A program made the position numbers and the translations under genes. The notes below the pieces were generated by a model that had not been told where the DNA came from, did no database searches, and saw only the letters and a list, made by a program, of their open reading frames with translations. DNA of 36,662 nt, from IMG/VR virus record IMGVR_UViG_2713896792_000001, positions 1 through 36,662 of that record. The stretch is one strand, 5' to 3'. Shown one piece after another: positions 22,712-36,633 of the stretch (position 1 is the first letter of the stretch; every line of letters starts with the position of its first letter). Source of the DNA: a virus (lineage: Duplodnaviria > Heunggongvirae > Uroviricota > Caudoviricetes).

Positions 22712-23034
22712 ACTTTCAGCTCCCTCTCATGTAACCAGTGGGCTGCACGCAGCCTGGCGTTTTCCTCACCGGCAAGCAGTGCGCGGATAATCCCGACCGC
22801 CTCGCTGTCGTCGTCCTTCACCGCGGTATGAAGAGTGATACCCCGGGCCACGCCACGCTTTATCGTGATTACGCCTTTTTTCTCCAGTGCGCGAAGATGC
22901 TCCACCGCTGCATTCACTGAACGGTATCCCAGCATGGTTGCCACCTCCTGATTGGTTGGCGGGAAGCCACGTTCTTTCTGATAAGAAATCAGCATATCCA
23001 GCACCTGCTGCTGGCATTGAGTTAACGTCGTCAT
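22708..23034 (-). CDS. LexA N-terminal DNA-binding-domain protein lacking a peptidase domain
   Basis: Start at Met12 of track ORF; LTQCQQQVLDMLISYQKERGFPPTNQEVATMLGYRSVNAAVEHLRALEKKGVITIKRGVARGITL resembles the LexA winged-helix domain; only about 40 further residues, no Ser/Lys S24 domain. Confidence 0.5.
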   Translation of the reverse strand: MTTLTQCQQQVLDMLISYQKERGFPPTNQEVATMLGYRSVNAAVEHLRALEKKGVITIKRGVARGITLHTAVKDDDSEAVGIIRALLAGEENARLRAAHWLHERELKV

Positions 23035-23522
23035 TAAGCCCCCACGTAATTCCCTGACAGATACCACTCTTCACCCGATGCAGCGCGCTTGCTGCTTTTC
23101 CGTAAGCACCGCTCACGACGCGCCAGAAAATTGTTTCGTTCTGGCTGGGAGTGGCTTTCACGGAATGCCGCCATCCACACGGTTGCAGCACGACGGTATA
23201 AGCCCCTGGACTCCAGTTCTTCAGCCTGGCGGGTCAGGCACAAAATCACCTGGGGATCGTTAGTGCCGACATAGAAATTGCGCACAGGTCCGGTTTCACG
23301 AACTGGTTGTGGTTCCGGCTCCTGCGCTCTCTCAGTCAGGCGCGGGAAATGTCTGCGTGTATCACCTTCACAACGGTGAGCCACACGCCCACTCTGACGT
23401 AACTTGCTTGCTGACTGCAGAACGCGCTGCCGTGAGTAACCAGCAAAAGCATCTGCAATGTCTCCGGAAGTACACCCCGGATGGGCTTCAATGAATTTCT
23501 GAACGTCATTTAACAGACTCAT
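23034..23522 (-). CDS. PerC-like transcriptional regulator (candidate)
   Basis: Start at Met3 (ATG, SD GGGGGTGA); C-terminal AEELESRGLYRRAATVWMAAF...RRERCL resembles the PerC/Pch motif as I recall it. Confidence 0.4.
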   Translation of the reverse strand: MSLLNDVQKFIEAHPGCTSGDIADAFAGYSRQRVLQSASKLRQSGRVAHRCEGDTRRHFPRLTERAQEPEPQPVRETGPVRNFYVGTNDPQVILCLTRQAEELESRGLYRRAATVWMAAFRESHSQPERNNFLARRERCLRKSSKRAASGEEWYLSGNYVGA

Positions 23523-23524
23523 GA

Positions 23525-24466
23525 TCACCCCCTGAATCCTGCCGGGATCTGGCTGTAGTCCACGTTGTCGTAACTGGATTTGAAGTACGGGTCTTCGCGT
23601 TTTTCGGTGTACGTGCTGACGGACGGCGATAAGCGCAGGGAAAGCTCATCCCATTTTTCCCGCAGCTTCGACGGGCTGAGCACGTTACGGCACCAGAACG
23701 GATCGCGGCTGACGCGGCTGTACATCTCGCAGATTTGTTTGTGAGTACGACCATCCTGCACACACATCAGGCGAATTTCGTTTGCCCAGGCTGTCCAGTT
23801 CGGTTCTTTGGGACGAACCACCTCGCCGTCACATTCGGCAGCCTGCTCGTACAGGGCGATGATTTTTTTCCAGAGCCACTGTGCGCAGGTCAAATCATCC
23901 TGCGTCCCCCACTGGCGCTTTTTAGGGCTGAATACAACCGCATCAGGATGGCGAGTTAAAAAATCCTGTTCATCCGTCTGCGTGTCCGGTTGCGAAGCGT
24001 CCGGACGAGAAGTTTTTTTATCTGACGGATCATGTTTTGATTTTACTGACGGATCCCCGCCAGATTCTGACGGGTGAAAACCCGCTTTTTTGCCAGATTT
24101 CGACGCATCAAATTTTGACGGGTCAGATTTTGATGCGTCAGATTTTGACGGGTCAGAATCTGACAGTTGAGAAAATGCCGCTGCCTGAAGCTTCGCAACG
24201 TTAAGCTGATAAACATTCGACGCATTGCGGTTACCCTGGCGACGCGCCTTACGCGTTAACCAGCCTTCTGCTTCCAGCCGTGCGATAGCCGTTCTGACGG
24301 TACTCATCCCCGCGCCAATCTGGCGGGCAATGGTTTCAATTGATGGCCAGCACACACCTTCGTCATTACTGAAATCAGCCAGGCGGGCCATAATTGCCAC
24401 GCTGGATAATTTCATGCCTGATGCAGCGCAACCATCCCATACATAGCCGGTTAATTTAGTGCTCAT
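23525..24466 (-). CDS. phage replication initiation protein (O-like, N-terminal wHTH)
   Basis: 313-aa ORF; N-terminal helix-turn-helix-like region, low-complexity Asp/Ser/Lys linker encoded by the iteron array, distinct C-terminal domain. Confidence 0.6.
   Translation of the reverse strand: MSTKLTGYVWDGCAASGMKLSSVAIMARLADFSNDEGVCWPSIETIARQIGAGMSTVRTAIARLEAEGWLTRKARRQGNRNASNVYQLNVAKLQAAAFSQLSDSDPSKSDASKSDPSKFDASKSGKKAGFHPSESGGDPSVKSKHDPSDKKTSRPDASQPDTQTDEQDFLTRHPDAVVFSPKKRQWGTQDDLTCAQWLWKKIIALYEQAAECDGEVVRPKEPNWTAWANEIRLMCVQDGRTHKQICEMYSRVSRDPFWCRNVLSPSKLREKWDELSLRLSPSVSTYTEKREDPYFKSSYDNVDYSQIPAGFRG
24020..24166. repeat. iteron array (candidate origin of replication) inside the initiator gene
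   Basis: Tandem approx 15-bp repeats CAGATTTTGACGGGT / CAGATTTTGATGCGT / CAAATTTTGACGGGT / CAGATTTCGACGCAT / CAGATTCTGACGGGT plus TCTGACGG half-sites. Confidence 0.55.
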
Positions 24467-24475
24467 GACCGACCT

Positions 24476-24814
24476 CTATTTCCCTGAATTTACGACGAAA
24501 CTGTTCGAGCGGGCTGAAGCACTCATGCTCATAGCCTTCGCGGAGGTAGATAACCCGTTGTGTTTCCGGCTCCCAACGAATGACTCTGACGGGCACTCCG
24601 TAGTGATCTTTGAACCAGCGGTTAACTTGTCGCAAAGGACTGTCTCCTTCTGCCGGTTGAAATCACCCACAGCCCACTCTGCAAAGCTGTGGGTTACAAT
24701 TTCCCTGTCACCTGGTACATTTACTGCATAGCAATACTCCACCTTCGCTTTTCCACCCGGTACAGGAAGCGCAATCAGTTGCGAGCGACGGTAGTGTGTT
24801 GTTAAACTGTTCAT
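24476..24814 (-). CDS. hypothetical protein (frame uncertain; see findings)
   Basis: 112-aa ORF whose ATG overlaps the CII-like stop (ATGA); its C-terminal half is low-complexity, while an alternative frame (24456-24635, TTG start, AAGGAG SD) encodes a more protein-like 59-aa sequence. Confidence 0.3.
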
Positions 24815-25407
24815 GCGTTAGTTTCTCCACAGTCACGACACGCCACGGCGCCCGGAGCTGCACACTCGCGGGCGTCATTACTTTCTGAAATGCAAAAAAT
24901 TTTGTAGACCAGTGCTGCATGCTCCTGCAGCTTCGAAATTGAGAGGTACAGCTCGTCGTTAATTGCTGTCTTCTCATGCGGTTCCACTACACCGTCTTCA
25001 ATTGCTGAACGAATCTGTTTTGAATAACTGCCGATCTGTTCAATGACTTCCAGCAGGCGCTGGTTAATATCGGCGTTGTCCACATCCTCGACGTCAGGAA
25101 GAGACACAAAGACGCCATTTGCAGACTGCGCCACAGCGTCAGCAATGAAGTGAGTTCCACCAGCACGTTGCAAAATCATTGCCCATCCCAGCGGGAAAAT
25201 CTGATCGCCATCGGCACGAAGGCGGTTAAATAATGCGTTCTCTGTTACATCCAGCCAGTCAGCTGCTTCAGCGTAACCACCCGGCAACTTTGCGATAGTT
25301 TTTCTGACAGCTTTCACGTACCACTCAGGCTGTTTTTCTACTTTCCAGTGATGCTTACCCACGGTTAGCCTCATCGTTCTGTGGTTTCTGTTAATCGATT
25401 TATCCAT
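24811..25407 (-). CDS. CII-like regulatory protein (CP76/YdaT-like, candidate)
   Basis: Track ORF starts at GTG 25476 inside cro; first plausible ATG (Met24, 25407) overlaps cro stop (ATGGATAA); position immediately downstream of cro. Confidence 0.4.
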
Positions 25408-25600
25408 TAGATTTTTCATAAAGCTCAGGTTTAAATGGCAACCGTCCGCAAGTTCTATATGCAGCTTCTGCTGCACGTCCTTTTGGAATTAACTGGCCCG
25501 GACGGTTTCGCCACTGATAAACGGCTTCAGTTGTTATGCCGAAAAAAGCAGCAACTTTCTCAATACTGCCGAAGTAGCTTTCGATATCGTCAGTTGTCAT
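25400..25600 (-). CDS. Cro-like HTH repressor (YdaS family-like)
   Basis: 66-aa ORF divergent from cI, SD GGAGGG; HTH-like segment IEKVAAFFGITTEAVYQWRNR. Confidence 0.6.
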   Translation of the reverse strand: MTTDDIESYFGSIEKVAAFFGITTEAVYQWRNRPGQLIPKGRAAEAAYRTCGRLPFKPELYEKSNG

Positions 25601-25697
25601 ACGCCCTCCAAACTAAGTTTTATTAGATGCTAATTACAAATCTATCTTTGGTCAATAAAAACTAAGATTACTTAGTAATTAAAGAAATGGTGCTCCT
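25601..25697. promoter_or_regulatory. OR-like divergent promoter/operator region between cro and cI
   Basis: 97-bp AT-rich intergenic region containing ACTAAG (25612-25617) and inverted repeat CTAAG-ATTA-CTTAG (25662-25675). Confidence 0.5.
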
Positions 25698-26324
25698 ATG
25701 GAAACGGTTGGTCAGCGTATAAAAGCTCTGAGAAGAGTTACCAGAACGTCCCAGAAAGAATTGGGTAAATTTTGTGGAGTAAGCGACGTTGCTGTGGGGT
25801 ACTGGGAGAAAGACATCAATACCCCTGGTGGGGAGGCACTTTCGAAATTAGCGAAGTTCTTCAATACGTCAATAGATTACATTCTTTATGGTGCTGAGTT
25901 TGAAGGCAAACTCGTCACAAACATGCGCAGAGTTCCTGTAATATCGTGGGTTCAGGCTGGGCAGTTTACTGAGTGCAGGGCAGCAGAAGTGTTTAGTGAA
26001 GTGGACAAGTGGGTAGATACATCATTAAAGATTGGTGATAACTCATTTGCATTAGAGGTTAAAGGTGACTCCATGACTAACCCTAATGGCCTCCCAACAA
26101 TACCAGAAGGCGCAACAGTGATTGTAGATCCAGATGCAGAACCTCGTCATGGAAAAATAGTCATCGCTCGACTTGATGGAACAAACGAAGCTACAGTAAA
26201 AAAATTAGTCATCGATGGCCCTCAAAAGTTTTTAGTGCCATTAAATCCTCGGTATCCCAACATCCCTATCAATGGTAATTGCCTTATCATTGGTGTAGTC
26301 AAAGGAGTTCAATACGAACTCTAA
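25698..26324 (+). CDS. CI-type prophage repressor (HTH_XRE + S24 LexA-like peptidase)
   Basis: 208 aa; N-terminal HTH (QKELGKFCGVSDVAVGYWE), C-terminal S24 motifs EVKGDSMTNP (Ser) and ATVKKLV (Lys). Confidence 0.85.
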   Translation: METVGQRIKALRRVTRTSQKELGKFCGVSDVAVGYWEKDINTPGGEALSKLAKFFNTSIDYILYGAEFEGKLVTNMRRVPVISWVQAGQFTECRAAEVFSEVDKWVDTSLKIGDNSFALEVKGDSMTNPNGLPTIPEGATVIVDPDAEPRHGKIVIARLDGTNEATVKKLVIDGPQKFLVPLNPRYPNIPINGNCLIIGVVKGVQYEL

Positions 26325-27652: not shown

Positions 27653-28015
27653 ATGGCTAGCGAACGCAGTACTGATGTGCAGGCATTTATCGGGGAGCTG
27701 GACGGCGGCGTATTTGAAACCAAAATCGGCGCAGTTCTCAGTGAAGTCGCTTCCGGTGTGATGAACACGAAAACCAAAGGTAAGGTCTCGCTCAACCTGG
27801 AAATCGAACCGTTTGATGAGAACCGAGTGAAAATCAAACACAAACTCTCATATGTTCGCCCGACTAACCGCGGGAAAATTTCCGAAGAAGACACCACCGA
27901 AACGCCGATGTATGTCAATCGCGGTGGTCGCCTGACTATTCTGCAGGAAGACCAGGGACAGTTACTGACTCTTGCCGGTGAACCTGACGGAAAACTCCGC
28001 GCAGCAGGTCGTTAA
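27653..28015 (+). CDS. yfdP: YfdP-like hypothetical protein
   Basis: 120 aa from Met107 of the track ORF (ATG 27653, SD GAGGAG); first of a 120/274/178/120-aa gene run matching the sizes and order I recall for CPS-53 yfdPQRS. Confidence 0.45.
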   Translation: MASERSTDVQAFIGELDGGVFETKIGAVLSEVASGVMNTKTKGKVSLNLEIEPFDENRVKIKHKLSYVRPTNRGKISEEDTTETPMYVNRGGRLTILQEDQGQLLTLAGEPDGKLRAAGR

Positions 28016-28080
28016 TATCGTTCTTAATAAACTGATTATTTATCTCATCACTGAATATCTTTATATAGTGAGGACTTATT

Positions 28081-28905
28081 ATGTCTCAGAACTTAGACGC
28101 AACCGCAATTAATCAAATCCATGCCCTTATTTCTGCTCAGGGTGTTAATGAAATTATCAGTAAGATTGGTGCCGATGCTGTGGCATTGCCTGAGAATTAC
28201 CGCATTCATGATCTGGAAAAATTTAATTTAAATCGTTTCCGTTTCCGTGGTGCGCTTTCCACTGCCAGCATCGATGACTTTACCCGTTATTCTAAAGATC
28301 TTGCAGATGAAGGCACCCGCTGCTTTATCGATGCCGATAATATGCGTGCCGTCAGTGTGCTTAACCTGGGTACTATTGATGAGCCAGGTCACGCAGATAA
28401 CACTGCCACTCTCAAACTGAAAAAGACAGCACCGTTCTCTGCTCTGTTGTCTGTTAACGGCGAGCGTAACTCCCAGAAGTCACTGGCAGAATGGATCGAA
28501 GACTGGGCCGACTACCTTGTGGGCTTTGATGCTAATGGTGATGCCATTCAGGCAACAAAAGCGGCTGCGGCAGTCCGTAAAATCACGATTGAAGCAAACC
28601 AGACCGCTGATTTTGAAGACAATGACTTCAGCGGCAAACGCTCCCTGATGGAGTCTGTCGAAGCGAAGACCAAAGATATTATGCCTGTGGCATTTGAATT
28701 TAAATGCGTTCCGTTTGAAGGCCTGAAAGAACGTCCGTTTAAATTACGCCTCAGCATTATCACTGGCGATCGTCCTGTACTGGTTCTGCGCATTATTCAG
28801 CTGGAAGCAGTACAGGAAGAAATGGCTAACGAATTTCGTGATCTGCTTGTTGAGAAATTCAAGGACAGCAAAGTAGAAACCTTTATTGGTACTTTCACCG
28901 CCTGA
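28081..28905 (+). CDS. yfdQ: YfdQ-like protein (DUF2303)
   Basis: 274-aa ORF, SD GTGAGGA; size and synteny match CPS-53 YfdQ (recollection). Confidence 0.55.
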
Positions 28906-28917
28906 TTTCATTACTGC

Positions 28918-28939
28918 AAATGCCCCTGCGGGGGCATTT
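28918..28939 (+). terminator. hairpin downstream of yfdQ-like gene (weak terminator or attenuator)
   Basis: AAATGCCCC-TGCG-GGGGCATTT perfect 9-bp stem; only a short T run follows. Confidence 0.3.
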
Positions 28940-29032
28940 ATGGAAACGTAATTGACTCAATAATCGCCGGATGGTGAGGGCTTCCTTTTACCAGAATTCA
29001 GCGCGGTGCAGCGCATATACGTGGAGAACAAA

Positions 29033-29569
29033 ATGTCATTTATTAAAACTTTTTCCGGGAAGCATTTTTATTATGACAGGATAAATAAAGACGACATCGT
29101 TATTAACGATATCGCGGTTTCTCTTTCAAATATCTGTCGCTTTGCAGGACATCTTTCACATTTCTACAGCGTCGCCCAACATGCGGTGCTTTGCAGCCAG
29201 CTGGTACCGCAGGAATTTGCTTTTGAAGCGTTAATGCATGATGCAACAGAAGCATATTGCCAGGACATCCCCGCACCACTGAAACGCCTTCTTCCTGACT
29301 ATAAACGGATGGAAGAAAAAATAGACGCCGTAATCCGTGAGAAATACGGGTTACCCCCGGTTATTAGCACGCCTGTGAAATATGCCGATCTCATCATGCT
29401 GGCAACCGAACGCCGCGATCTCGGGCTTGATGATGGCTCTTTCTGGCCTGTACTGGAAGGTATCCCGGCAACAGAGATGTTCAAAGTTATTCCACTGTCG
29501 CCAGGCCATGCCTATGGGATGTTTATGGAACGTTTTAACGAGTTATCGGAGTTACGCAAATGCGCATGA
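29033..29569 (+). CDS. yfdR: HD-domain 5'-deoxynucleotidase, YfdR-like
   Basis: 178 aa from Met10 of track ORF (SD GGAGAA); H...HD motif visible (AQHAV ... ALMHDATEAY). Confidence 0.6.
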   Translation: MSFIKTFSGKHFYYDRINKDDIVINDIAVSLSNICRFAGHLSHFYSVAQHAVLCSQLVPQEFAFEALMHDATEAYCQDIPAPLKRLLPDYKRMEEKIDAVIREKYGLPPVISTPVKYADLIMLATERRDLGLDDGSFWPVLEGIPATEMFKVIPLSPGHAYGMFMERFNELSELRKCA

Positions 29570-29922
29570 ATGTTTTCGAAATGGAAGGGGTTCTTCGCGG
29601 GAAATGTGTACCGCGAGATCTGAAAGTGAATGAAACAAATGCTGAGTATCTGGTACGTAAATTCGATGCGCTTGAAGCTAAATGTGCGGCTCTGGAAAAC
29701 AAAGTAATACCAGTGTCAGCTGAACTGCCGCCAGCAAATGAAAGTGTTCTGTTATTTGATGCTAATGGAGAAGGCTGGCTGATTGGCTGGCGTTCTCTCT
29801 GGTACACATGGGGGCAAAAAGAAACCGGAGAATGGCAGTGGACATTTAAGGTCGGGGACCTTGAAAACGTCAATATCACTCACTGGGCAGTAATGCCGAA
29901 AGCACCAGAGACTAAGAAATGA
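29560..29922 (+). CDS. yfdS: YfdS-like protein (DUF551-like)
   Basis: 120-aa ORF overlapping yfdR-like stop (alternative ATG at 29566 in an ATGA overlap); Trp-rich C-terminal region. Confidence 0.5.
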   Translation: MRMNVFEMEGVLRGKCVPRDLKVNETNAEYLVRKFDALEAKCAALENKVIPVSAELPPANESVLLFDANGEGWLIGWRSLWYTWGQKETGEWQWTFKVGDLENVNITHWAVMPKAPETKK

Positions 29923-30193: not shown

Positions 30194-30400
30194 ATGCTGA
30201 ACCTCGATTGCGTTCCTATCTCAACTTATTGCAAAGAAACTGGCGAAACTCCTGAAGCAATAAACAAACGTGTACAGCGCGGTGTTTGGCGTGAAGGTGT
30301 TCAGGTTTTAAAGGTTGAAGGCGTTAAGGAGAGGTGGATTGATCTTAGTGAGGTTGCAAAATGGGCCAGACAAAATTGCTCAAACTACCGCGCGGCGTAA
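30194..30400 (+). CDS. excisionase (Xis-like)
   Basis: 68 aa from Met5 of track ORF (SD GGAGAA); winged-helix-like pattern and position immediately upstream of and overlapping int. Confidence 0.5.
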   Translation: MLNLDCVPISTYCKETGETPEAINKRVQRGVWREGVQVLKVEGVKERWIDLSEVAKWARQNCSNYRAA

Positions 30401-31557
30401 CAATCAGAAAACACCGTCAGGGAGAAACGATCAATATAACTTTCACCTACAAAGGAGTTAAATGTCGTGAGCCACTTTCCAATCTGGAAGTAACACCAAA
30501 GAACATTAAATACGCCGAGCGCACACTCGGCGAAATTCATAATAAGATCGAAAGGGGAACATTCATTTATGCGGAATATTTTCCCCGTTCTGCTCGTTTG
30601 AAAATTTTTGGTAATGCTGCTGCAGGCAAAACGGTAAAAATGTACCTGGACGAATACCTTGAAATCTGCGAAACGAGAAAACTTTCACCATCTACGATTG
30701 GTGGTTATAAAAAATGCCGTAGTGCGTTAGCCTCACTCCACATTTGCCCTGCAAGTGAATTAACACCAGCAATCCTGAAAGCGTGGATTCAAAGCCAGAA
30801 AACGACCTTAAAAACAATTCGCAACCAGTTATCTTTCCTGCGGTCAGCACTTGATGAAGCCGTAACCGATGGGGTACTTCAAATTAACCCCGTATCGTTG
30901 GTAACTGCTTCGCGCTACCAAAGTGATAAGTCAGAAGCAGAAAGCAGCTACGTGGTTGATCCGCTATCACCAACAGAAGTTGATGCATTACTAGCAGCAG
31001 CCGGAAACAAACAATGGGAGAATCTGTTCCGGTTCGCTATACATACAGGCCTGCGTAGTTCTGAATTATGTGCCCTTCGATGGCGTGATATCGACTTTGT
31101 TGGAAAAACTGCCCATGTCCAGAGCGCAAGTGTTGTCGGTGTTATCAAAGGGACAAAGACAAAAGCAGGTACTCGTAAAGTTGAACTGACAGAAGAGGCA
31201 ATGTTGGCGCTGATAAATCAGAAGCCATTTACATTCATGAAGGATGCTACTGTCTTTGAAGACCCAAAGACCAATAAGCCTTGGGCAAGTGCTGATGCAA
31301 TCAGGAAAAAAGCATGGGTGCCAACATTACGGAAAGCAGGTATTCGATACAGAAATCCATATCAAACTAGGCATACATTCGCCACCAGCCATATCAGCCG
31401 AGGAGCAAATCTGTTTTGGCTTGCAGCTCAAATGGGGCATAAAGGGCCGGAAATGCTTTTCAGGCATTATGGTTCGTATCTCGTAGACTATGATGGCAAG
31501 ACAGCTTGTAAGGACCAAGTATCAAAAAATCCGGAGAACATGAAAATTGAGAAGTAA
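30361..31557 (+). CDS. tyrosine integrase (lambda-type, with arm-binding N-domain)
   Basis: 398-aa ORF; C-terminal catalytic region RHTFATSHISRGANLFWLAAQMGHKGPEMLFRHYGSY (R, H-x-x-R, Y); overlaps xis 3' end. Confidence 0.8.
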   Translation: MGQTKLLKLPRGVTIRKHRQGETINITFTYKGVKCREPLSNLEVTPKNIKYAERTLGEIHNKIERGTFIYAEYFPRSARLKIFGNAAAGKTVKMYLDEYLEICETRKLSPSTIGGYKKCRSALASLHICPASELTPAILKAWIQSQKTTLKTIRNQLSFLRSALDEAVTDGVLQINPVSLVTASRYQSDKSEAESSYVVDPLSPTEVDALLAAAGNKQWENLFRFAIHTGLRSSELCALRWRDIDFVGKTAHVQSASVVGVIKGTKTKAGTRKVELTEEAMLALINQKPFTFMKDATVFEDPKTNKPWASADAIRKKAWVPTLRKAGIRYRNPYQTRHTFATSHISRGANLFWLAAQMGHKGPEMLFRHYGSYLVDYDGKTACKDQVSKNPENMKIEK

Positions 31558-31747: not shown

Positions 31748-33013
31748 ATGTTGATTGAGTTTACAGTACAAAACTATAAATCTATTTCAGAGAAACAAAC
31801 ACTGAGTTTAGTTGCATCAAAACTTAACGATTTGCCTAATAATCTGTTCAGTATTGATGAACCTAAATCTCTTGAATTGCTTAAAAGTGCTGTGATTTAT
31901 GGCCCTAATGCTGCCGGAAAATCAAACATTATTAACGCTATTACAACTATGGCTGAACTTATTGTCCGGTCTGCTACAGGTTATAAAAGTGGTGATAAAC
32001 TTGATATCACGCCTTTTAGACTAGACTCAAAGAAGATTAATCAACCATCTGAATTTGAAATTAACTTTATTTCCGAAGGCATCAGATACCAGTATGGTTT
32101 TTCTGCAACAGAAGATTTTATTCACGACGAATGGTTATTTGCATTCCCCAAAGGCAGACCACAAAAATGGTTTTTACGTCTATGGGATGAAGAAAAACAA
32201 ACCCATGAATGGGAGTTGGGGCCATCGTTGACAGGAGAAAAACAAACATGGTTGAAATCAACCAGGCCTAATGCGCTCTTTCTTTCTACAGCGGTACAAT
32301 TAAACAGTGTACAACTAAAACCTGTATACGATTGGTTTTATTACAAAGTTAAATTTACTGAATTAACAGGTTGGGATAGTGATTACAGTGCAAAGCAATG
32401 CTTAAATGATAAGAAAGATGAGATTCTCAATTTTTTAAAAGCTGCCGATGTAGGTATTGATGACATTCATGTAACAAAAGAAAAATTCAATCCCAATGCT
32501 CTTCCTGATGATATGCCTGCAGCCATCAAGGAACTAGTGATTAAGAATATGCAAGGCAAGGAAGAATATGTCATTAAAACACTTCATAATAATGAGGATG
32601 GAGAGCCAATTCCATTCGATTTAAAAGATGAATCGCATGGAACTAGAAAAATCTTTAGTTTCGCGGGTCCCTTATCACATTCACTCGAGACAGGAAACAT
32701 CCTGTTTATTGATGAATTAAATGATAACTTACACCCCAAATTAGTTGAGTTTATTGTAGGTTTATTTCACGATAAAAATATCAATAAGAATGGTGCCCAG
32801 TTAATCTTTACAACTCATGAGACGTCTATTTTAAATCAAGATGTTTTCAGACGAGATCAGATTTGGTTTGTAGAAAAAGACAATTCAAAGCAAACAAATC
32901 TTTTCCCACTTACGGATTTTAGTCCAAGAAAAGGAAGGGAGAATTTAGAAGCTTCTTATCTTGACGGTAGATATGGGGCTTTACCACTCATTGGGAAATG
33001 GGAGAGATATTAA
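31748..33013 (+). CDS. AAA_21/ABC-type ATPase, AbiLi-like
   Basis: 421 aa; Walker A GPNAAGKSN, Walker B ILFIDELNDN, H-loop FTTHE; AT-rich gene; SD AAGGG. Confidence 0.7.
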   Translation: MLIEFTVQNYKSISEKQTLSLVASKLNDLPNNLFSIDEPKSLELLKSAVIYGPNAAGKSNIINAITTMAELIVRSATGYKSGDKLDITPFRLDSKKINQPSEFEINFISEGIRYQYGFSATEDFIHDEWLFAFPKGRPQKWFLRLWDEEKQTHEWELGPSLTGEKQTWLKSTRPNALFLSTAVQLNSVQLKPVYDWFYYKVKFTELTGWDSDYSAKQCLNDKKDEILNFLKAADVGIDDIHVTKEKFNPNALPDDMPAAIKELVIKNMQGKEEYVIKTLHNNEDGEPIPFDLKDESHGTRKIFSFAGPLSHSLETGNILFIDELNDNLHPKLVEFIVGLFHDKNINKNGAQLIFTTHETSILNQDVFRRDQIWFVEKDNSKQTNLFPLTDFSPRKGRENLEASYLDGRYGALPLIGKWERY

Positions 33014-33699
33014 TGGGAAGCGAAGATCTGTTCAAAAAAAGAAAGGCTCGGCGTAATAATGAATTCAAACGAGTTAGTAAAGCACGAGCTCAAATGAAGA
33101 AAATTCTTATCGTCTGTGAGGGAGAGAAGACTGAGCCCGCATATTTTACAGATTTTATAAAACATTGCCGTATAAGCACGGCAAGCATAGTTGAGATTTC
33201 TGGAGAGTGCGGCTCAAGCCCTATGAATGTGGTATCTTGGGCAAAAGAAAAATATAATACGGAAAAAAAAAGGAGCGACCCTTATGATAAGGTTTATTGT
33301 GTCTTTGATAGAGACGCTCACCCTAACTATGATGAAGCTCTTAGCAGGATTAATTCCTTAAATCCAAAAGGGATTTTTGTTGCTATAACTTCCATACCAT
33401 GTTTCGAGTACTGGCTGATACTACATTTTGGATACACCCGAAAATCATTTTCACCTCAGAAAGGCAAAAGTGAAGGCGCACAAATGCTAGCTGAGTTAAA
33501 AAAATACATGCCAGATTATGAGAAAAAGGCATCAGGTGTATTTAATAAATTGCAAGATCGGCTCGATACGGCATTAATCAATGCTAAAAGAGTCGAAGAT
33601 GCCGCCAAAAAAGACGGTTCGATAAATCCTTCAACTAAAGTTGGCGCTTTGATTACAGATCTAATTAACATTCGTGATGACTTTGAAAATGAGAAGTAA
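33013..33699 (+). CDS. RloB-like (TOPRIM-like) protein, AbiLii-like
   Basis: Start at Met6 of track ORF (TAATG overlap, SD GGGAGAG); N-terminal ILIVCEGEKTEPAYF motif characteristic of RloB-family proteins (recollection). Confidence 0.6.
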   Translation: MGSEDLFKKRKARRNNEFKRVSKARAQMKKILIVCEGEKTEPAYFTDFIKHCRISTASIVEISGECGSSPMNVVSWAKEKYNTEKKRSDPYDKVYCVFDRDAHPNYDEALSRINSLNPKGIFVAITSIPCFEYWLILHFGYTRKSFSPQKGKSEGAQMLAELKKYMPDYEKKASGVFNKLQDRLDTALINAKRVEDAAKKDGSINPSTKVGALITDLINIRDDFENEK

Positions 33700-33824
33700 A
33701 AATAACATGTCATGATGTAGCGACGGCAGCATGTTTAAGTTCAAATGGCAAAGTGTACGCGAAGTATACGCGGATCAAAAACAATAGAAAAAACGTATAT
33801 TTTACAAAAGATTATATAAATTTT

Positions 33825-33855
33825 GACGCGGGTTCAACTCCCGCCAGCTCCACCA
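33825..33855 (+). other. ssrA: attachment-site core: 3'-terminal 31 nt of the tmRNA gene ssrA (fragment only)
   Basis: GACGCGGGTTCAACTCCCGCCAGCTCCACCA is identical to the 3' end of E. coli ssrA as I recall it; the upstream sequence is not ssrA. Confidence 0.6.
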
Positions 33856-33901
33856 AAATTCTCCATCGGTGATTACCAGAGTCATCCGATGAAGTCCTAA
33901 G

Positions 33902-33935
33902 AGCCCGCACGGCGCAAGCCCTGCGGGCTTTTTTG
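33902..33935 (+). terminator. rho-independent terminator (native ssrA terminator)
   Basis: AGCCCGCA ... TGCGGGCT stem followed by TTTTTT. Confidence 0.55.
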
Positions 33936-33986
33936 TGCCCTCAATTTGTCCCGCGAAGTCCGAAGAAAACTAATTAAATCCGATCC

Positions 33987-34044
33987 TTTTAGGCACCTTG
34001 TTAGGCACCTCATAAAGCTTTATTGTTTTTTGAGGTGCCTAAAA
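33987..34044. repeat. TAGGCACC repeat cluster upstream of intA-like gene (candidate protein-binding sites)
   Basis: Direct repeats TTTTAGGCACCT / TTGTTAGGCACCTCA and inverted copy TGAGGTGCCTAAAA. Confidence 0.35.
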
Positions 34045-34060
34045 CTATGGAAACCCGGCA

Positions 34061-35302
34061 ATGGCAAGACAAACCAAACCTCTATCCGTTAAAGAAATAG
34101 AATCAGCCAAACCCAAGGAGGCGGACTACGTTCTCTATGATGGCGATGGCCTTGAGCTACTCATTAAATCCAGCGGGAGTAAAATCTGGCAGTTTCGCTA
34201 CATTCGCCCTGTCACCAAGAAACGAGCAAAGAAGAGCATAGGCTCCTACCCGTCAGTTACCCTTGCCGATGCCAGAAACTACCGTGCAGAGTCCCGCTCA
34301 CTACTGGCTAAACAGATCGATCCGCAGGAACATCAGCAAGAACAATTGCGCAGTTCGCTGGAAGCCAAAACCAACACTTTCCAACTCGTAGCTGAACGTT
34401 GGTGGAATGTGAAGAAAGCCAGTGTGACAGAGGACTATGCGGAAGATATCTGGCGCTCTCTTGAAAGAGACGTCTTTCCTGCGATTGGCGACGTTAGCGT
34501 TACAGATATTAAAGCTCATACACTGGTTCAGGCCGTACAACCGGTTCAGGCCAGAGGAGCACTGGAAACTGTTCGTCGCCTGTGCCAACGTATTAATGAG
34601 GTCATGATCTATGCCCAGAACACAGGGCTGATTGATGCTGTTCCCAGCGTTAATATCGGTAAAGCCTTCGAGAAGCCTCAGAAAAAGAACATGCCCAGCA
34701 TTCGACCGGATCAGCTACCTCAGTTAATGCAGACGATGCGAACAGCCAGCATTAGCCTTTCCACACGCTGCCTGTTCATGTGGCAACTTCTTACTATTAC
34801 CCGCCCTGCCGAAGCGGCTGAAGCTCTCTGGGAAGAGGTAGACATAGAAGCGCGAGAGTGGAAGATTCCTGCAGCACGCATGAAAATGAACCGCGACCAT
34901 ACTGTTCCATTGTCAGATGAAGCAATTGCGATACTAGAGATGATGAAGCCGTTAAGTGGAAATCGAGAATTTATCTTTCCCAGCCGCATCAAGCCAAACC
35001 AGCCGATGAACAGTCAGACCGTAAACGCATCGCTAAAACGCGCAGGTTTTGGTGGGGTGCTCGTTTCACACGGCCTGCGATCTATCGCCAGTACAGCCCT
35101 TAATGAGCAGGGATTTCCACCTGATGTTATTGAGGCTGCACTTGCTCATGTGGATAAGAATGAGGTTCGTCGTGCGTATAACCGTAGTGATTATCTTGAG
35201 CAGCGACGGCCTATGATGCAGTGGTGGGCTGATTTTGTGATGGCTGCAGATCACGGTAGTATGATTGAAGGAGGGATAAAGGCAATGCGGTTAGTTGGAT
35301 GA
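34061..35302 (+). CDS. intA: P4-family tyrosine integrase, CP4-57 IntA-like
   Basis: 413-aa ORF directly downstream of the ssrA 3' end, as intA is in E. coli K-12; N-terminus MARQTKPL..YDGDGLELLIKSSGSK.WQFRY and C-terminus VSHGLRSIASTALNEQGFPPDVIEAALAH match IntA as recalled. Confidence 0.8.
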   Translation: MARQTKPLSVKEIESAKPKEADYVLYDGDGLELLIKSSGSKIWQFRYIRPVTKKRAKKSIGSYPSVTLADARNYRAESRSLLAKQIDPQEHQQEQLRSSLEAKTNTFQLVAERWWNVKKASVTEDYAEDIWRSLERDVFPAIGDVSVTDIKAHTLVQAVQPVQARGALETVRRLCQRINEVMIYAQNTGLIDAVPSVNIGKAFEKPQKKNMPSIRPDQLPQLMQTMRTASISLSTRCLFMWQLLTITRPAEAAEALWEEVDIEAREWKIPAARMKMNRDHTVPLSDEAIAILEMMKPLSGNREFIFPSRIKPNQPMNSQTVNASLKRAGFGGVLVSHGLRSIASTALNEQGFPPDVIEAALAHVDKNEVRRAYNRSDYLEQRRPMMQWWADFVMAADHGSMIEGGIKAMRLVG

Positions 35303-35382
35303 CATGTCGTAGCTAAAACCCGTTCTGTTTTTGGGTAGATTAACCTGAAGGTCTGCAATTTTAAATGACGCTGAAAGAAGTT

Positions 35383-35410
35383 AAACCCTGCTCTTAAGCA
35401 GGGTTTTTAT
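35383..35410 (+). terminator. rho-independent terminator downstream of intA-like gene
   Basis: AAACCCTGCT-CTTA-AGCAGGGTTT 10-bp stem followed by TTAT. Confidence 0.45.
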
Positions 35411-35512
35411 GATTTATTCTAATTTTGGTTTTGAATCTTTCTGACCTGCTCCCCGTTGATTAGTACACCCCGATGTTAGTAATGTCTTCATAAGCCACAT
35501 GAGGACATCCCC

Positions 35513-35776
35513 ATGAAGAAGCGTTTTTCCGACGAACAGATCATCAGTATTCTCCGCGAAGCCGAAGCTGGGGTACCCGCCCGTGAACTCTGCCGCAAGC
35601 ATGCCATTTCCGATGCCACGTTTTACACCTGGCGTAAGAAGTATGGCGGTATGGAGGTGCCTGAAGTTAAGCGCCTGAAGTCGCTTGAGGAAGAGAACGC
35701 CAGACTCAAGAAGCTGCTTGCCGAAGCCATGCTGGATAAAGAGGCGCTTCAGGTGGCTCTTGGGCGAAAGTACTGA
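35513..35776 (+). CDS. IS3-family transposase OrfA (HTH)
   Basis: 87 aa; HTH plus leucine-zipper-like C-terminus ([26 protein letters not shown]). Confidence 0.8.
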
Positions 35777-35799
35777 CGACAGACCAGAAGCGGGAAGCC

Positions 35800-36633
35800 G
35801 TGATGTTGATGTGTGATGCGACCGGTCTGTCGCAACGTCGTGCCTGCAGGCTTACAGGTTTATCCCTGTCGACCTGCCGCTATGAGGCTCACCGTCCGGC
35901 TGCTGATGCGCATTTATCAGGGCGCATCACTGAGCTGGCACTGGAGCGCAGGCGTTTTGGCTACCGTCGTATTTGGCAGTTGCTGCGCCGTGAAGGGCTT
36001 CATGTTAATCATAAGCGCGTGTACCGGCTTTATCACCTCAGTGGCCTGGGCGTAAAACGCAGAAGACGTCGTAAAGGGCTGGCAACAGAACGTCTGCCGC
36101 TGCTCCGTCCGGCGGCGCCCAATCTGACCTGGTCGATGGATTTCGTCATGGACGCACTTTCCACCGGTCGCAGGATCAAGTGTCTTACCTGCGTCGATGA
36201 TTTCACAAAGGAATGCCTGACGGTCACTGTTGCCTTTGGGATTTCAGGCGTTCAGGTCACGCGTATTCTGGACAGCATTGCACTGTTTCGAGGCTATCCG
36301 GCGACGATAAGAACTGACCAGGGGCCGGAGTTCACTTGCCGTGCACTGGATCAATGGGCCTTTGAGCATGGTGTTGAGTTGCGCTTAATCCAGCCGGGCA
36401 AGCCAACGCAGAACGGATTTATTGAGAGCTTTAACGGACGATTTCGCGATGAATGTTTGAATGAGCACTGGTTCAGCGATATCGTTCATGCCAGGAAAAT
36501 TATTAATGACTGGCGGCAGGATTATAACGAATGCCGCCCGCACTCCACGCTGAATTATCAGACACCGTCTGAATTTGCAGCGGGCTGGAGAAAGGGTCAT
36601 TCTGAGAATGAAGATTCCGACGTTACTAACTGA
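35800..36633 (+). CDS. IS3-family transposase OrfB (DDE/rve catalytic domain)
   Basis: 277 aa in the -1 frame relative to orfA; that frame is open from 35740, so an OrfAB fusion by -1 frameshifting is possible; DDE-type motifs ([23 protein letters not shown]). Confidence 0.8.

Follow-up and report, generated by a model that had tools for sequence, protein, structure and literature searches.

The 36,662-nt stretch of viral DNA analyzed here at its full length (the window; IMG/VR record IMGVR_UViG_2713896792_000001, Caudoviricetes) encodes a 313-aa replication initiator of the phage lambda O family that ends in a nine-residue peptide resembling the C terminus of the host primosomal protein DnaT. 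The question is how a lambdoid phage with an O-like initiator can replicate if it encodes no P, DnaC, or DnaB. The same module also occurs in Shigella serotype-converting phages and in some Shiga toxin (Stx) phages. We consider the best explanation to be that this is a lambda-O-family initiator with its origin inside its own gene and with a DnaT-like tail that recruits the host DnaB-DnaC complex; taken as a whole, this account has, in our judgment, an even chance of being right. The observations that it draws on are the anatomy of the gene and its product, their homologies, the absence of a loader gene, and the statistics of tail type versus neighboring gene. The module is an ordinary, very common prophage replication module of a type already annotated (SfII/SfIV, the Stx-phage Eru6 type, and yfdO of E. 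coli K-12 CPS-53). What is new is the nine-residue tail, and the interest of the locus rests on it, not on the module.

The last nine residues of the initiator (SQIPAGFRG, positions 23528-23554) are identical at eight of nine positions to residues 171-179 of E. coli DnaT (SQIPPGFRG), and both peptides stand at the extreme C terminus. Residues P308, G310, F311, and R312 are invariant in 70 initiator homologs, and the ~25 residues that precede them are hypervariable. Among ~116 full-length DnaT homologs the end is always D-x-x-IP-x-GFRG, sometimes followed by AK. When the initiator and DnaT families were compared by hhalign, only the last 16 columns aligned, and for this reason the window protein is not a DnaT. 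The initiator has no Pfam match to the three-helix DNA-binding domain of DnaT (PF17948), and the DnaT N-terminal domain is also missing from it. The public label 'primosomal protein I' was rejected as a family name, given that the globular domains are not detectably related to DnaT by hhalign. The GFRG tail itself occurs on three unrelated C-terminal domains: the lambda-O type, Phg_2220_C (PF09524), and the type found in mEp460 and SfV. Specifically, mEp460_043 and related Stx-phage proteins have only their last 33 residues in common with the window protein, and some Phg_2220_C-type initiators align to DnaT 101-179 with E values down to 6e-7. Judged by this distribution, the tail is a mobile module.

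Tail type was compared with neighboring genes in two samples. The first consists of 79 unique initiators from different genera, with a loader gene sought within 4 kb. Fifty of these end in a GFR-type tail; 48 have no loader nearby, two have a DnaC-like gene, and none has a lambda-P homolog. All seven initiators with a HWNSPEAWENTL-type tail have a lambda-P homolog immediately downstream (none lacks a loader or has a DnaC-like gene), including one with a Phg_2220_C domain. The remaining 22 have other tails, and here 20 lack a loader, one has a DnaC-like gene, and one a lambda-P homolog. Searching IMG/VR with the initiator alignment yielded nothing but copies of 98-100% identity, and the second sample was instead taken from the loader side. 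The protein just upstream of a phage DnaC-like loader ends in IPPGFRG in 52 of 54 unique cases and in GFSG or GFKG in the other two, and for lambda P all 52 upstream proteins have the end DWIYGV(D/E)L. Over both samples, no GFR tail was found among 60 P-linked initiators. The pattern of tail and loader repeats across different C-terminal domains and genera. In the E. coli chromosome dnaT lies directly upstream of dnaC, and E. coli DnaC is 48% identical to the phage DnaC-like protein. Two Vibrio phages have the lambda-O-type C-terminal domain with other tails; to our knowledge, the hosts of these two use DciA and have neither DnaC nor DnaT.

Further tail types were seen among the numbered loci (L) of the first sample. 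Lambda-P-linked initiators (L014-L017, L019, L059, L064, L073) have a tail of the form (H/E)WN(S/T)..(A/G)W(E/D)..L, which stands on both lambda-O-type and Phg_2220_C domains and may be the P-docking counterpart of the GFRG tail. Another class, with the same N-terminal domain and iterons, has a C-terminal extension of ~50 aa that ends in RWNAIWKEQAQRGNQGEAA or, in Providencia and Proteus, in QAAEQAAREVAA (L042, L051, L058, L067, L072, L075, L077-L079, L083, L086; L018-L027). These have no loader gene nearby, and the extension may be a further recruitment module. At L074 (3777-4679) an initiator lies directly 5' of a DnaC homolog, has an internal IPEGF, and ends in GGTDDDFI. This end resembles the acidic C-terminal tip (DDDIPF) of SSB, a protein that binds single-stranded DNA.

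For the mechanism, we infer iteron binding, melting at an AT-rich stretch, and recruitment of host DnaB-DnaC by the tail. The N-terminal winged-helix domain would bind six 15-bp dyad iterons (24061-24168), and the adjacent AT-rich stretch (24008-24057), with its two GATC boxes, would melt. As no phage helicase, loader, or primase gene is present, host DnaB, DnaC, and DnaG must serve. The flexible tail (D-x-x-IP-x-GFRG), which replaces the P-linked tail of the lambda type, would dock the host DnaB6-DnaC6 complex, most likely via DnaC. In this way the initiator would act as its own DnaT at the initiator-origin complex, with the tail doing the job of P, as the DnaT tail would in replication restart. 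Rac-type relatives retain this tail and have a DnaC paralog of their own.

Several points weigh against this account. No interaction between DnaT and DnaC is documented (PMC5778457, PMC11087952), and a 2026 cryo-electron microscopy study suggests the N-terminal domain of DnaT, not the tail, as recruiter of DnaB/DnaC (PMC13377028). Deletion of DnaT residues 154-179 lowers both affinity for single-stranded DNA (ssDNA) and cooperativity (PMC4132743), so the tail may instead act on DNA or on oligomerization. If dnaT-dnaC and ydaU-ydaV-type modules have a common ancestor, this could account for the synteny with no direct contact involved. The counts of tail versus loader overstate the number of independent events because many of the sampled phages are closely related (the loader-side loaders share 76-95% identity among themselves, the P proteins 97-100%). 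Among the 22 initiators with tails other than GFR, 20 likewise have no loader nearby, and a GFR tail is thus not the sole loader-less solution. The AT-rich stretch is short (~43 bp at 30% GC), and the literature yielded no experiments on the window initiator family. The 20-residue DnaT tail is flexible and, in the accessible parts of the publications, without an assigned partner; the same texts still call the preprimosome route of DnaB-DnaC recruitment unknown (PMC5778457, PMC4132743, PMC11087952, PMC13377028).

Since the literature on the DnaT tail shows an effect on ssDNA and no contact with DnaC, the main rival explanation is that the IPxGFRG tail boosts cooperative ssDNA binding or self-assembly of the initiator and thereby stabilizes the melted origin. 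The DnaB-DnaC complex would then arrive by another route, for example via the globular C-terminal domain, as with plasmid Rep proteins. Compared with DnaT 84-179, DnaT 84-153 does show about threefold weaker binding to dT30 and less cooperativity (PMC4132743), DnaT 1-161 is a dimer and not a trimer (PMC5778457), and Arg and Phe, which are typical of ssDNA contacts, occur in the tail. However, a tail for ssDNA binding or oligomerization would be equally useful to phages with P, yet it is present in none of the 60 P-linked and in all 54 DnaC-linked initiators. Its presence on three unrelated C-terminal domains also fits a self-contained docking peptide better than a domain-specific DNA-binding surface. 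We regard this rival as unlikely.

Alternatively, the tail could plug the initiator into PriA-PriB restart, replacing DnaT at a PriA-bound R-loop or D-loop at the transcribed origin, with helicase loading via the restart pathway. The origin does lie within a transcribed gene, 'primosomal protein I' is among the public labels, and ColE1 and Mu load DnaB through PriA. PriA and PriB are the known partners of DnaT, but in the cryo-electron microscopy structures DnaT touches PriA with its globular C-terminal domain and PriB with its acidic linker, and the accessible text assigns no role to the tail (PMC13377028). The window protein has no DnaT DNA-binding domain, and this route leaves the tight linkage of the tail to DnaC-like genes in phages unexplained. 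We therefore find it improbable, more so than the ssDNA alternative.

If the tail does recruit DnaB-DnaC, loader-less phage replication would be explained, the DnaT tail would be given a function, and a prophage origin of the dnaT-dnaC operon would be supported; if not, what remains is an ordinary ori-inside-O module of a well-annotated prophage family. More broadly, and only tentatively, IP-x-GFRG could be a portable docking motif for the DnaC-type loader (DnaB6-DnaC6). In DnaT it would supply the link through which the PriA-PriB-DnaT preprimosome brings in the helicase, and temperate phages would add it to unrelated origin-binding initiators and so need no loader gene of their own. The ancestor of DnaT-DnaC would be the initiator-loader pair of a Rac-type prophage (ydaU-ydaV-like), and DnaT would be the C-terminal half of a phage initiator after domestication. 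This extension we consider doubtful. The swapping of the tail peptide among unrelated domains makes a precise, inexpensive test of the docking idea possible. We found no description in the literature searched of the shared terminal peptide, its domain swapping, or its association with DnaC-type and not P-type loaders, nor any link drawn there between the DnaT tail and phage initiators; the loader-less arrangement or the DnaT-like end is possibly already in Weigel & Seitz 2006 (FEMS Microbiol Rev, 'Bacteriophage replication modules').

The lack of a loader gene holds for the whole window. A preliminary description of this DNA had stated that no P/DnaC-like loader or DnaB homolog follows the initiator and that the next genes are regulators, and had named a helicase loader among the neighboring open reading frames (ORFs) as the finding that would speak against it. 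No such loader was found. The next gene encodes a YfdN-like protein with a helix-turn-helix (HTH) and a PerC domain, followed by one for a LexA DNA-binding-domain (LexA-DBD) protein. By tblastn of E. coli DnaB, E. coli DnaC, the Rac-type DnaC-like protein, and lambda P against the whole window, the best E value was ~1.6; these four and P22 gp12 gave no match at E <= 1e-4. PHROG scans detected no loader among the leftward early genes. In the complete SfII genome (58 coding sequences) the initiator is the sole replication gene, with no DnaB, DnaC, P, or gp12 homolog.

Could a phage loader nevertheless be present but unrecognized, with the YfdN-like protein, the product of the phrog_1170 or DUF4222 ORF, or the LexA-DBD protein playing the role of P? 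An overlap of the YfdN-like gene with the stop codon of the initiator (23525-23528) suggests that the two are translationally coupled, like lambda O-P, and the YfdN-like gene accompanies the initiator in SfII, SfIV, CPS-53, and L029. Helicase loaders are also described, in the accessible part of one source, as highly diverse (PMC11087808). However, the candidate proteins match regulator families only (PerC/ANR, LexA_DNA_bind), and the YfdN-like product is by these matches a regulator-like protein, not a loader. Many GFR-tail initiators are directly followed by methyltransferase or ParB-like genes with no YfdN homolog, so there is no constant neighbor gene. A hidden loader is thus very unlikely.

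The protein is a true relative of lambda O, as the preliminary description had proposed in calling it O-like. Residues 70-277 align to lambda O 78-270 (BLASTP, E 4e-26, 31% identity), and the PHROG scan gave a full-length match to phrog_391 ('replication initiation O-like', E 1e-135). Lambda-like O genes were found in the phage collection by tblastn. The N terminus matches HTH_36 and lacks Phage_rep_O (PF04492), which lambda O and P22 gp18 do match in the same kind of scan. AlphaFold2 predicts linker residues 103-161 to be disordered. No Pfam family matched the C-terminal domain, the NCBIfam scan gave nothing above cut-off, and the whole initiator against Protein Data Bank chains gave only MarR-type HTH matches to the N-terminal domain, with no DnaT. 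In lambda, the C-terminal domain of O binds P. The C-terminal domain (residues ~170-313) had been put forward as the likely point of difference, and its identity as a matter to check. Most of it proves to be the lambda-O C-terminal domain by the same alignment: the globular part, 166-280, is ordinary, and the difference lies in the last ~10-30 residues. The idea that the C-terminal domain recruits host DnaB and DnaC is thereby refined to a specific, testable peptide.

The repeats that had been described as at least six units of about 15 bp in the codons of an Asp/Ser/Lys-rich linker are likewise confirmed by repeat searches and shuffles, with six units at 24061-24168 that exceed chance. Tandem Repeats Finder identified an array of period 15 at 24094-24157, with 4.3 copies, 81% matches, and the consensus CAGATTTTGACGGGT; a second repeat search carried the array to 24168 and found further repeats at 24046-24075 and 24023-24041. 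With up to three mismatches allowed, the consensus matches 10 times in the 36.7-kb window compared with 2.22 +/- 1.55 times in shuffled sequences, none of 100 shuffles reaches 10, and seven of the 10 matches fall in 24061-24162. Every iteron holds an 11-bp near-palindrome, a dyad like TCAGA-W-TCTGA. Between the sixth iteron and the array lies an 18-bp spacer with a homopolymer run, T6 on the + strand and A6 on the coding strand, and CCAGAATCTGG is the homologous copy of the sixth iteron in nearly all relatives. Diverged half-units (CTGACGGATC) occur at 24022-24031 and 24046-24055, two found against 0.10 expected. The stretch encoded by the repeats, SDSDPSKSDASKSDPSKFDASKS..PSESGGDPSVKSKHDPSDKK, is this linker. 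A terminator-like hairpin at 24071-24084 was considered in the spacer and dropped, as relatives do not share it.

Directly after the sixth iteron, on the promoter-distal side, comes the AT-rich stretch that may be the unwinding region. Of all 40-mers in the gene, those starting at 24008 and 24010 are lowest in GC (27.5%), and 24008-24050 has 30% GC. The GC-rich segment that follows sits where the N-terminal/iteron module meets the C-terminal domain module, and its GTCCGGACGCTKCGCAACCGGAC recurs in relatives with different iterons. The order along the gene is thus iterons, AT-rich, GC-rich. Lambda ori has the same order of elements, with an AT-rich stretch promoter-distal of the iterons (the lambda record annotates only the four iterons), and the ori-inside-O arrangement is a classic one. 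The likeness to lambda that had been noted for the window therefore holds: the iterons occupy the same relative place in the gene, starting at nt 299 compared with nt 349 of lambda O, and the AT-rich stretch follows on the same side. The module does not resemble a DnaA-dependent iteron replicon of the plasmid type in having DnaA boxes beside its iterons: the only TTWTNCACA of the window is far off at 35149, in a probable separate island. As a prediction from sequence comparison, the origin assignment is well supported.

Comparison of relatives covered 80 related loci, one genome per species, and a few others, with codon counts from 71 distinct genes. Within the array, Ser is encoded by TCA/TCT in 81% of cases compared with 40% elsewhere in the same genes, and by AGC/AGT in 7% compared with 38%; Lys is encoded by AAA in 95% compared with 67%. 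The encoded repeat peptide differs by group (SKSDP, PSTVD, RPETE), and the 15-bp period and dyad are kept, being conserved in ~60 relatives. Iteron copy number among close relatives is about 3-9, resulting in protein lengths of 274-338 aa. Repeat type tracks the N-terminal domain, not the rest of the protein. Where N-terminal identity to the window protein is at least 72%, the repeat is TCA(A/G)AWTCTGA whichever C-terminal domain or tail is attached; at 59-65% identity it is TCAA-N3-TTGA, at 56-63% CCAGAWWCTGA (L006) or TCAGRWTCTGA (L024), and at 29% TCAC-N3-GTGA. All four iteron-specificity groups retain both GATC boxes and the A run, and GATCCGTCAGTA is identical in 56 of 71 genes, its Asp codon being GAT in 71 of 71. 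Because the repeats follow the N-terminal domain and codon use in the array is strongly skewed, these data point to selection on the DNA. In lambdoid origins generally, specificity-determining iterons travel with the N-terminal domain, alongside a common unwinding part. The repeat spacings are all multiples of 3, so that a repeated peptide would give the same periodicity in the DNA, and the K-12 copy in CPS-53 is a cryptic remnant, but that the repeats are only a low-complexity coding linker, with the real origin elsewhere or the prophage defective, is most improbable given a Ser, Lys, and Asp codon skew limited to the array, dyad-symmetric units whose period and dyad persist as the encoded peptides vary by group, co-inheritance of repeats with the N-terminal domain, the AT-rich flank, and the related modules (94-98% DNA identity) in isolated-phage records such as SfII, SfIV, vB_EcoS-569R4, and Kati.

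DNA adenine or cytosine methyltransferase genes very often lie right after initiators of this kind (L018, L029, L035, L042, L044, L063, L067), in Vibrio phages as well (L091, L092), and some of the encoded enzymes are fused to a domain like 3'-phosphoadenosine 5'-phosphosulfate (PAPS) reductase. These neighbors and the two conserved GATC sites are hints that the origin is under methylation control.

Among known systems, lambda O with ori-lambda is similar in its homologous C-terminal domain, in the dyad-symmetric iterons within linker codons of the initiator gene, and in the place of that gene in the rightward early operon after cro and cII. The window protein differs in having HTH_36 in place of Phage_rep_O, six 15-bp iterons compared with four of ~18 bp, no P gene, and a tail that ends in SQIPAGFRG where lambda O ends in TDWIYGVDL. 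E. coli DnaT shares the extreme C-terminal D-x-x-IP-x-GFRG on a flexible tail, and Rac-type relatives of the initiator stand directly upstream of a DnaC paralog, as dnaT does of dnaC. Unlike DnaT, the window protein is phage encoded and presumably a sequence-specific origin binder, with no dnaC-like gene after it. The Rac-type module (YdaS-YdaT, a YdaU-like initiator, and a YdaV-like DnaC paralog) has an initiator of the same family (57% identity), with HTH_36, an iteron-coded linker, a lambda-O-type C-terminal domain, and the GFRG tail; it differs in its TCAA-N3-TTGA iterons and its own DnaC-like loader, and the window module represents the variant that lacks a loader.

Eru6 (Stx2a_WGPS2; Fagerlund et al. 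2022), SfV orf39, and mEp460_043 share the genomic context and the genes downstream, and over part of the module the DNA is 94% identical. Their final 33 residues, GFRG tail included, are 79% identical to those of the window protein. Their N-terminal domain, linker repeats, and C-terminal domain are, in contrast, of other types. In Eru6, too, an HTH_36 protein is the only replication-like gene, and nothing is known of Eru phage replication according to the same source (PMC8951638). DopC of Cellvibrionales and Oceanospirillales (Brezellec et al. 2017) combines an O-like HTH_36 N-terminal domain with the DnaT C-terminal motif (PMC5509034). Unlike the window initiator, which keeps the lambda-O C-terminal domain and iterons and has no P-like partner, DopC is encoded by a domesticated chromosomal gene without iterons and has the P-like partner DopE and a globular DnaT C-terminal domain. 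We also count DnaD and phage 'replisome organizer' proteins (B. subtilis DnaD, SPP1 G38P/G39P) among the closest systems.

Leftward early genes may contribute as accessories. Homologs of YfdP, YfdQ, YfdR, and YfdS lie at 27653-29922 (+) and, with YfdN, are 97-99% identical to their counterparts in K-12 CPS-53; the YfdR homolog (29006-29569) is 97% identical to K-12 YfdR. In published work, K-12 YfdR binds to DnaA at Phe46 and is a competitor of DnaB-DnaC at oriC, and initiation on the chromosome is inhibited when yfdQRST is overexpressed (PMC4776307). Blocking DnaB-DnaC at oriC would make sense because a loader-less phage must borrow the complex, and YfdQ/R/S could free host DnaB-DnaC or divert it to the phage origin.

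The source is a temperate phage of the SfII/CPS-53 type, with the initiator in the rightward early operon (Table 1). K-12 YfdO corresponds to residues 192-313 of the initiator (99.2% identity), a C-terminal remnant; by this match the window initiator is the intact form of CPS-53 yfdO. The 3.4-kb module has 97.5% DNA identity to SfII, where the counterpart gene is SfII_41 (942 nt), and 97-98% to Shigella phages SfII and SfIV and several E. coli phages. Isolated-phage records with related modules at 94-98% DNA identity include those of SfII, SfIV, vB_EcoS-569R4, and Kati; in SfV and PhiR63_1 the match covers only ~55% of the module. The initiator gene is present in 2724 of 5426 complete E. coli genomes searched. 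Public labels for the family are 'replication protein O', 'primosomal protein', 'primosomal protein I', and 'helix-turn-helix domain-containing protein'.

Table 1. Coordinates of features in the window (pLDDT, predicted local distance difference test)
Feature	Position	Strand	Remarks
Initiator gene	23525-24466	-	313-aa ORF, ATG start
N-terminal winged-helix DNA-binding domain, aa 1-99	24170-24466	-	Pfam HTH_36 (PF13730); presumed iteron reader
Globular helical C-terminal domain, aa 166-280	23627-23971	-	Homolog of lambda O C-terminal domain; AlphaFold2 pLDDT 85-97
Flexible C-terminal tail, aa 281-313	23528-23626	-	Low pLDDT (AlphaFold2)
Five contiguous 15-bp iterons	24094-24168		+ strand: CAGATTTCGACGCAT, CAAATTTTGACGGGT, CAGATTTTGATGCGT, CAGATTTTGACGGGT, CAGAATCTGACAGTT
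Sixth iteron, CAGATTCTGACGGGT	24061-24075		One mismatch to consensus
Candidate DNA-unwinding region	24008-24057		Two GATC boxes (CTGACGGATC); T7 run on + strand (A7 on coding strand); unwinding predicted
GC-rich segment	23966-24007		64% GC; 6-bp inverted repeat GTCCGG 23984-23989 / CCGGAC 24001-24006
YfdN-like gene, N-terminal HTH and PerC domain	23034-23528	-	Pfam PerC E 8e-9; phrog_1324 'transcriptional activator'; 97% identical to K-12 YfdN
CII/YmfL gene	24811-25476	-	Early operon; then a small ORF, then the initiator
Cro gene	25400-25600	-	Early operon
pR-like promoter, 5' of cro	25627-25655	-	Putative, by consensus match only: TTGACC, 17 nt, TAGCAT
cI-like repressor gene	25698-26324	+	Divergent from early operon
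YfdQ/YfdR/YfdS homologs, leftward early operon	28081-29922	+	97-99% identical to K-12 YfdQ, YfdR, YfdS

The pR-like promoter would drive an operon of cro, cII/YmfL, and the initiator, giving transcription through the origin, which might, by analogy with lambda, have a role in its activation. The genes 3' of the initiator encode, in order, the YfdN-like HTH+PerC protein, the LexA-DBD protein, RusA, KilA-N, DUF968/HNH, and antiterminator Q. In SfII, mEp460, and others, a dam methyltransferase gene of ~650 bp (L001 6732-7385) lies between the yfdN-like and LexA-DBD genes. It is absent from the window, in which these two ORFs overlap by 34 bp (23034-23067), and K-12 CPS-53 has a truncated methyltransferase gene, yfdM, at this position.

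Just 5' of the initiator, the window has overlapping ORFs in different frames (24456-24814, -). Public records differ on the two, some giving 24476-24814 (phrog_1170; SfII_40) and others 24456-24635 (DUF4222 in RefSeq E. coli; phrog_1343), and both match PHROG families strongly. At the other end, past the prophage integrase (30361-31557), the region 31748-36633 contains two ORFs (phrog_5836, phrog_16255), a second integrase (34061-35302), and a transposase fragment (35800-36633), and is probably a separate island.

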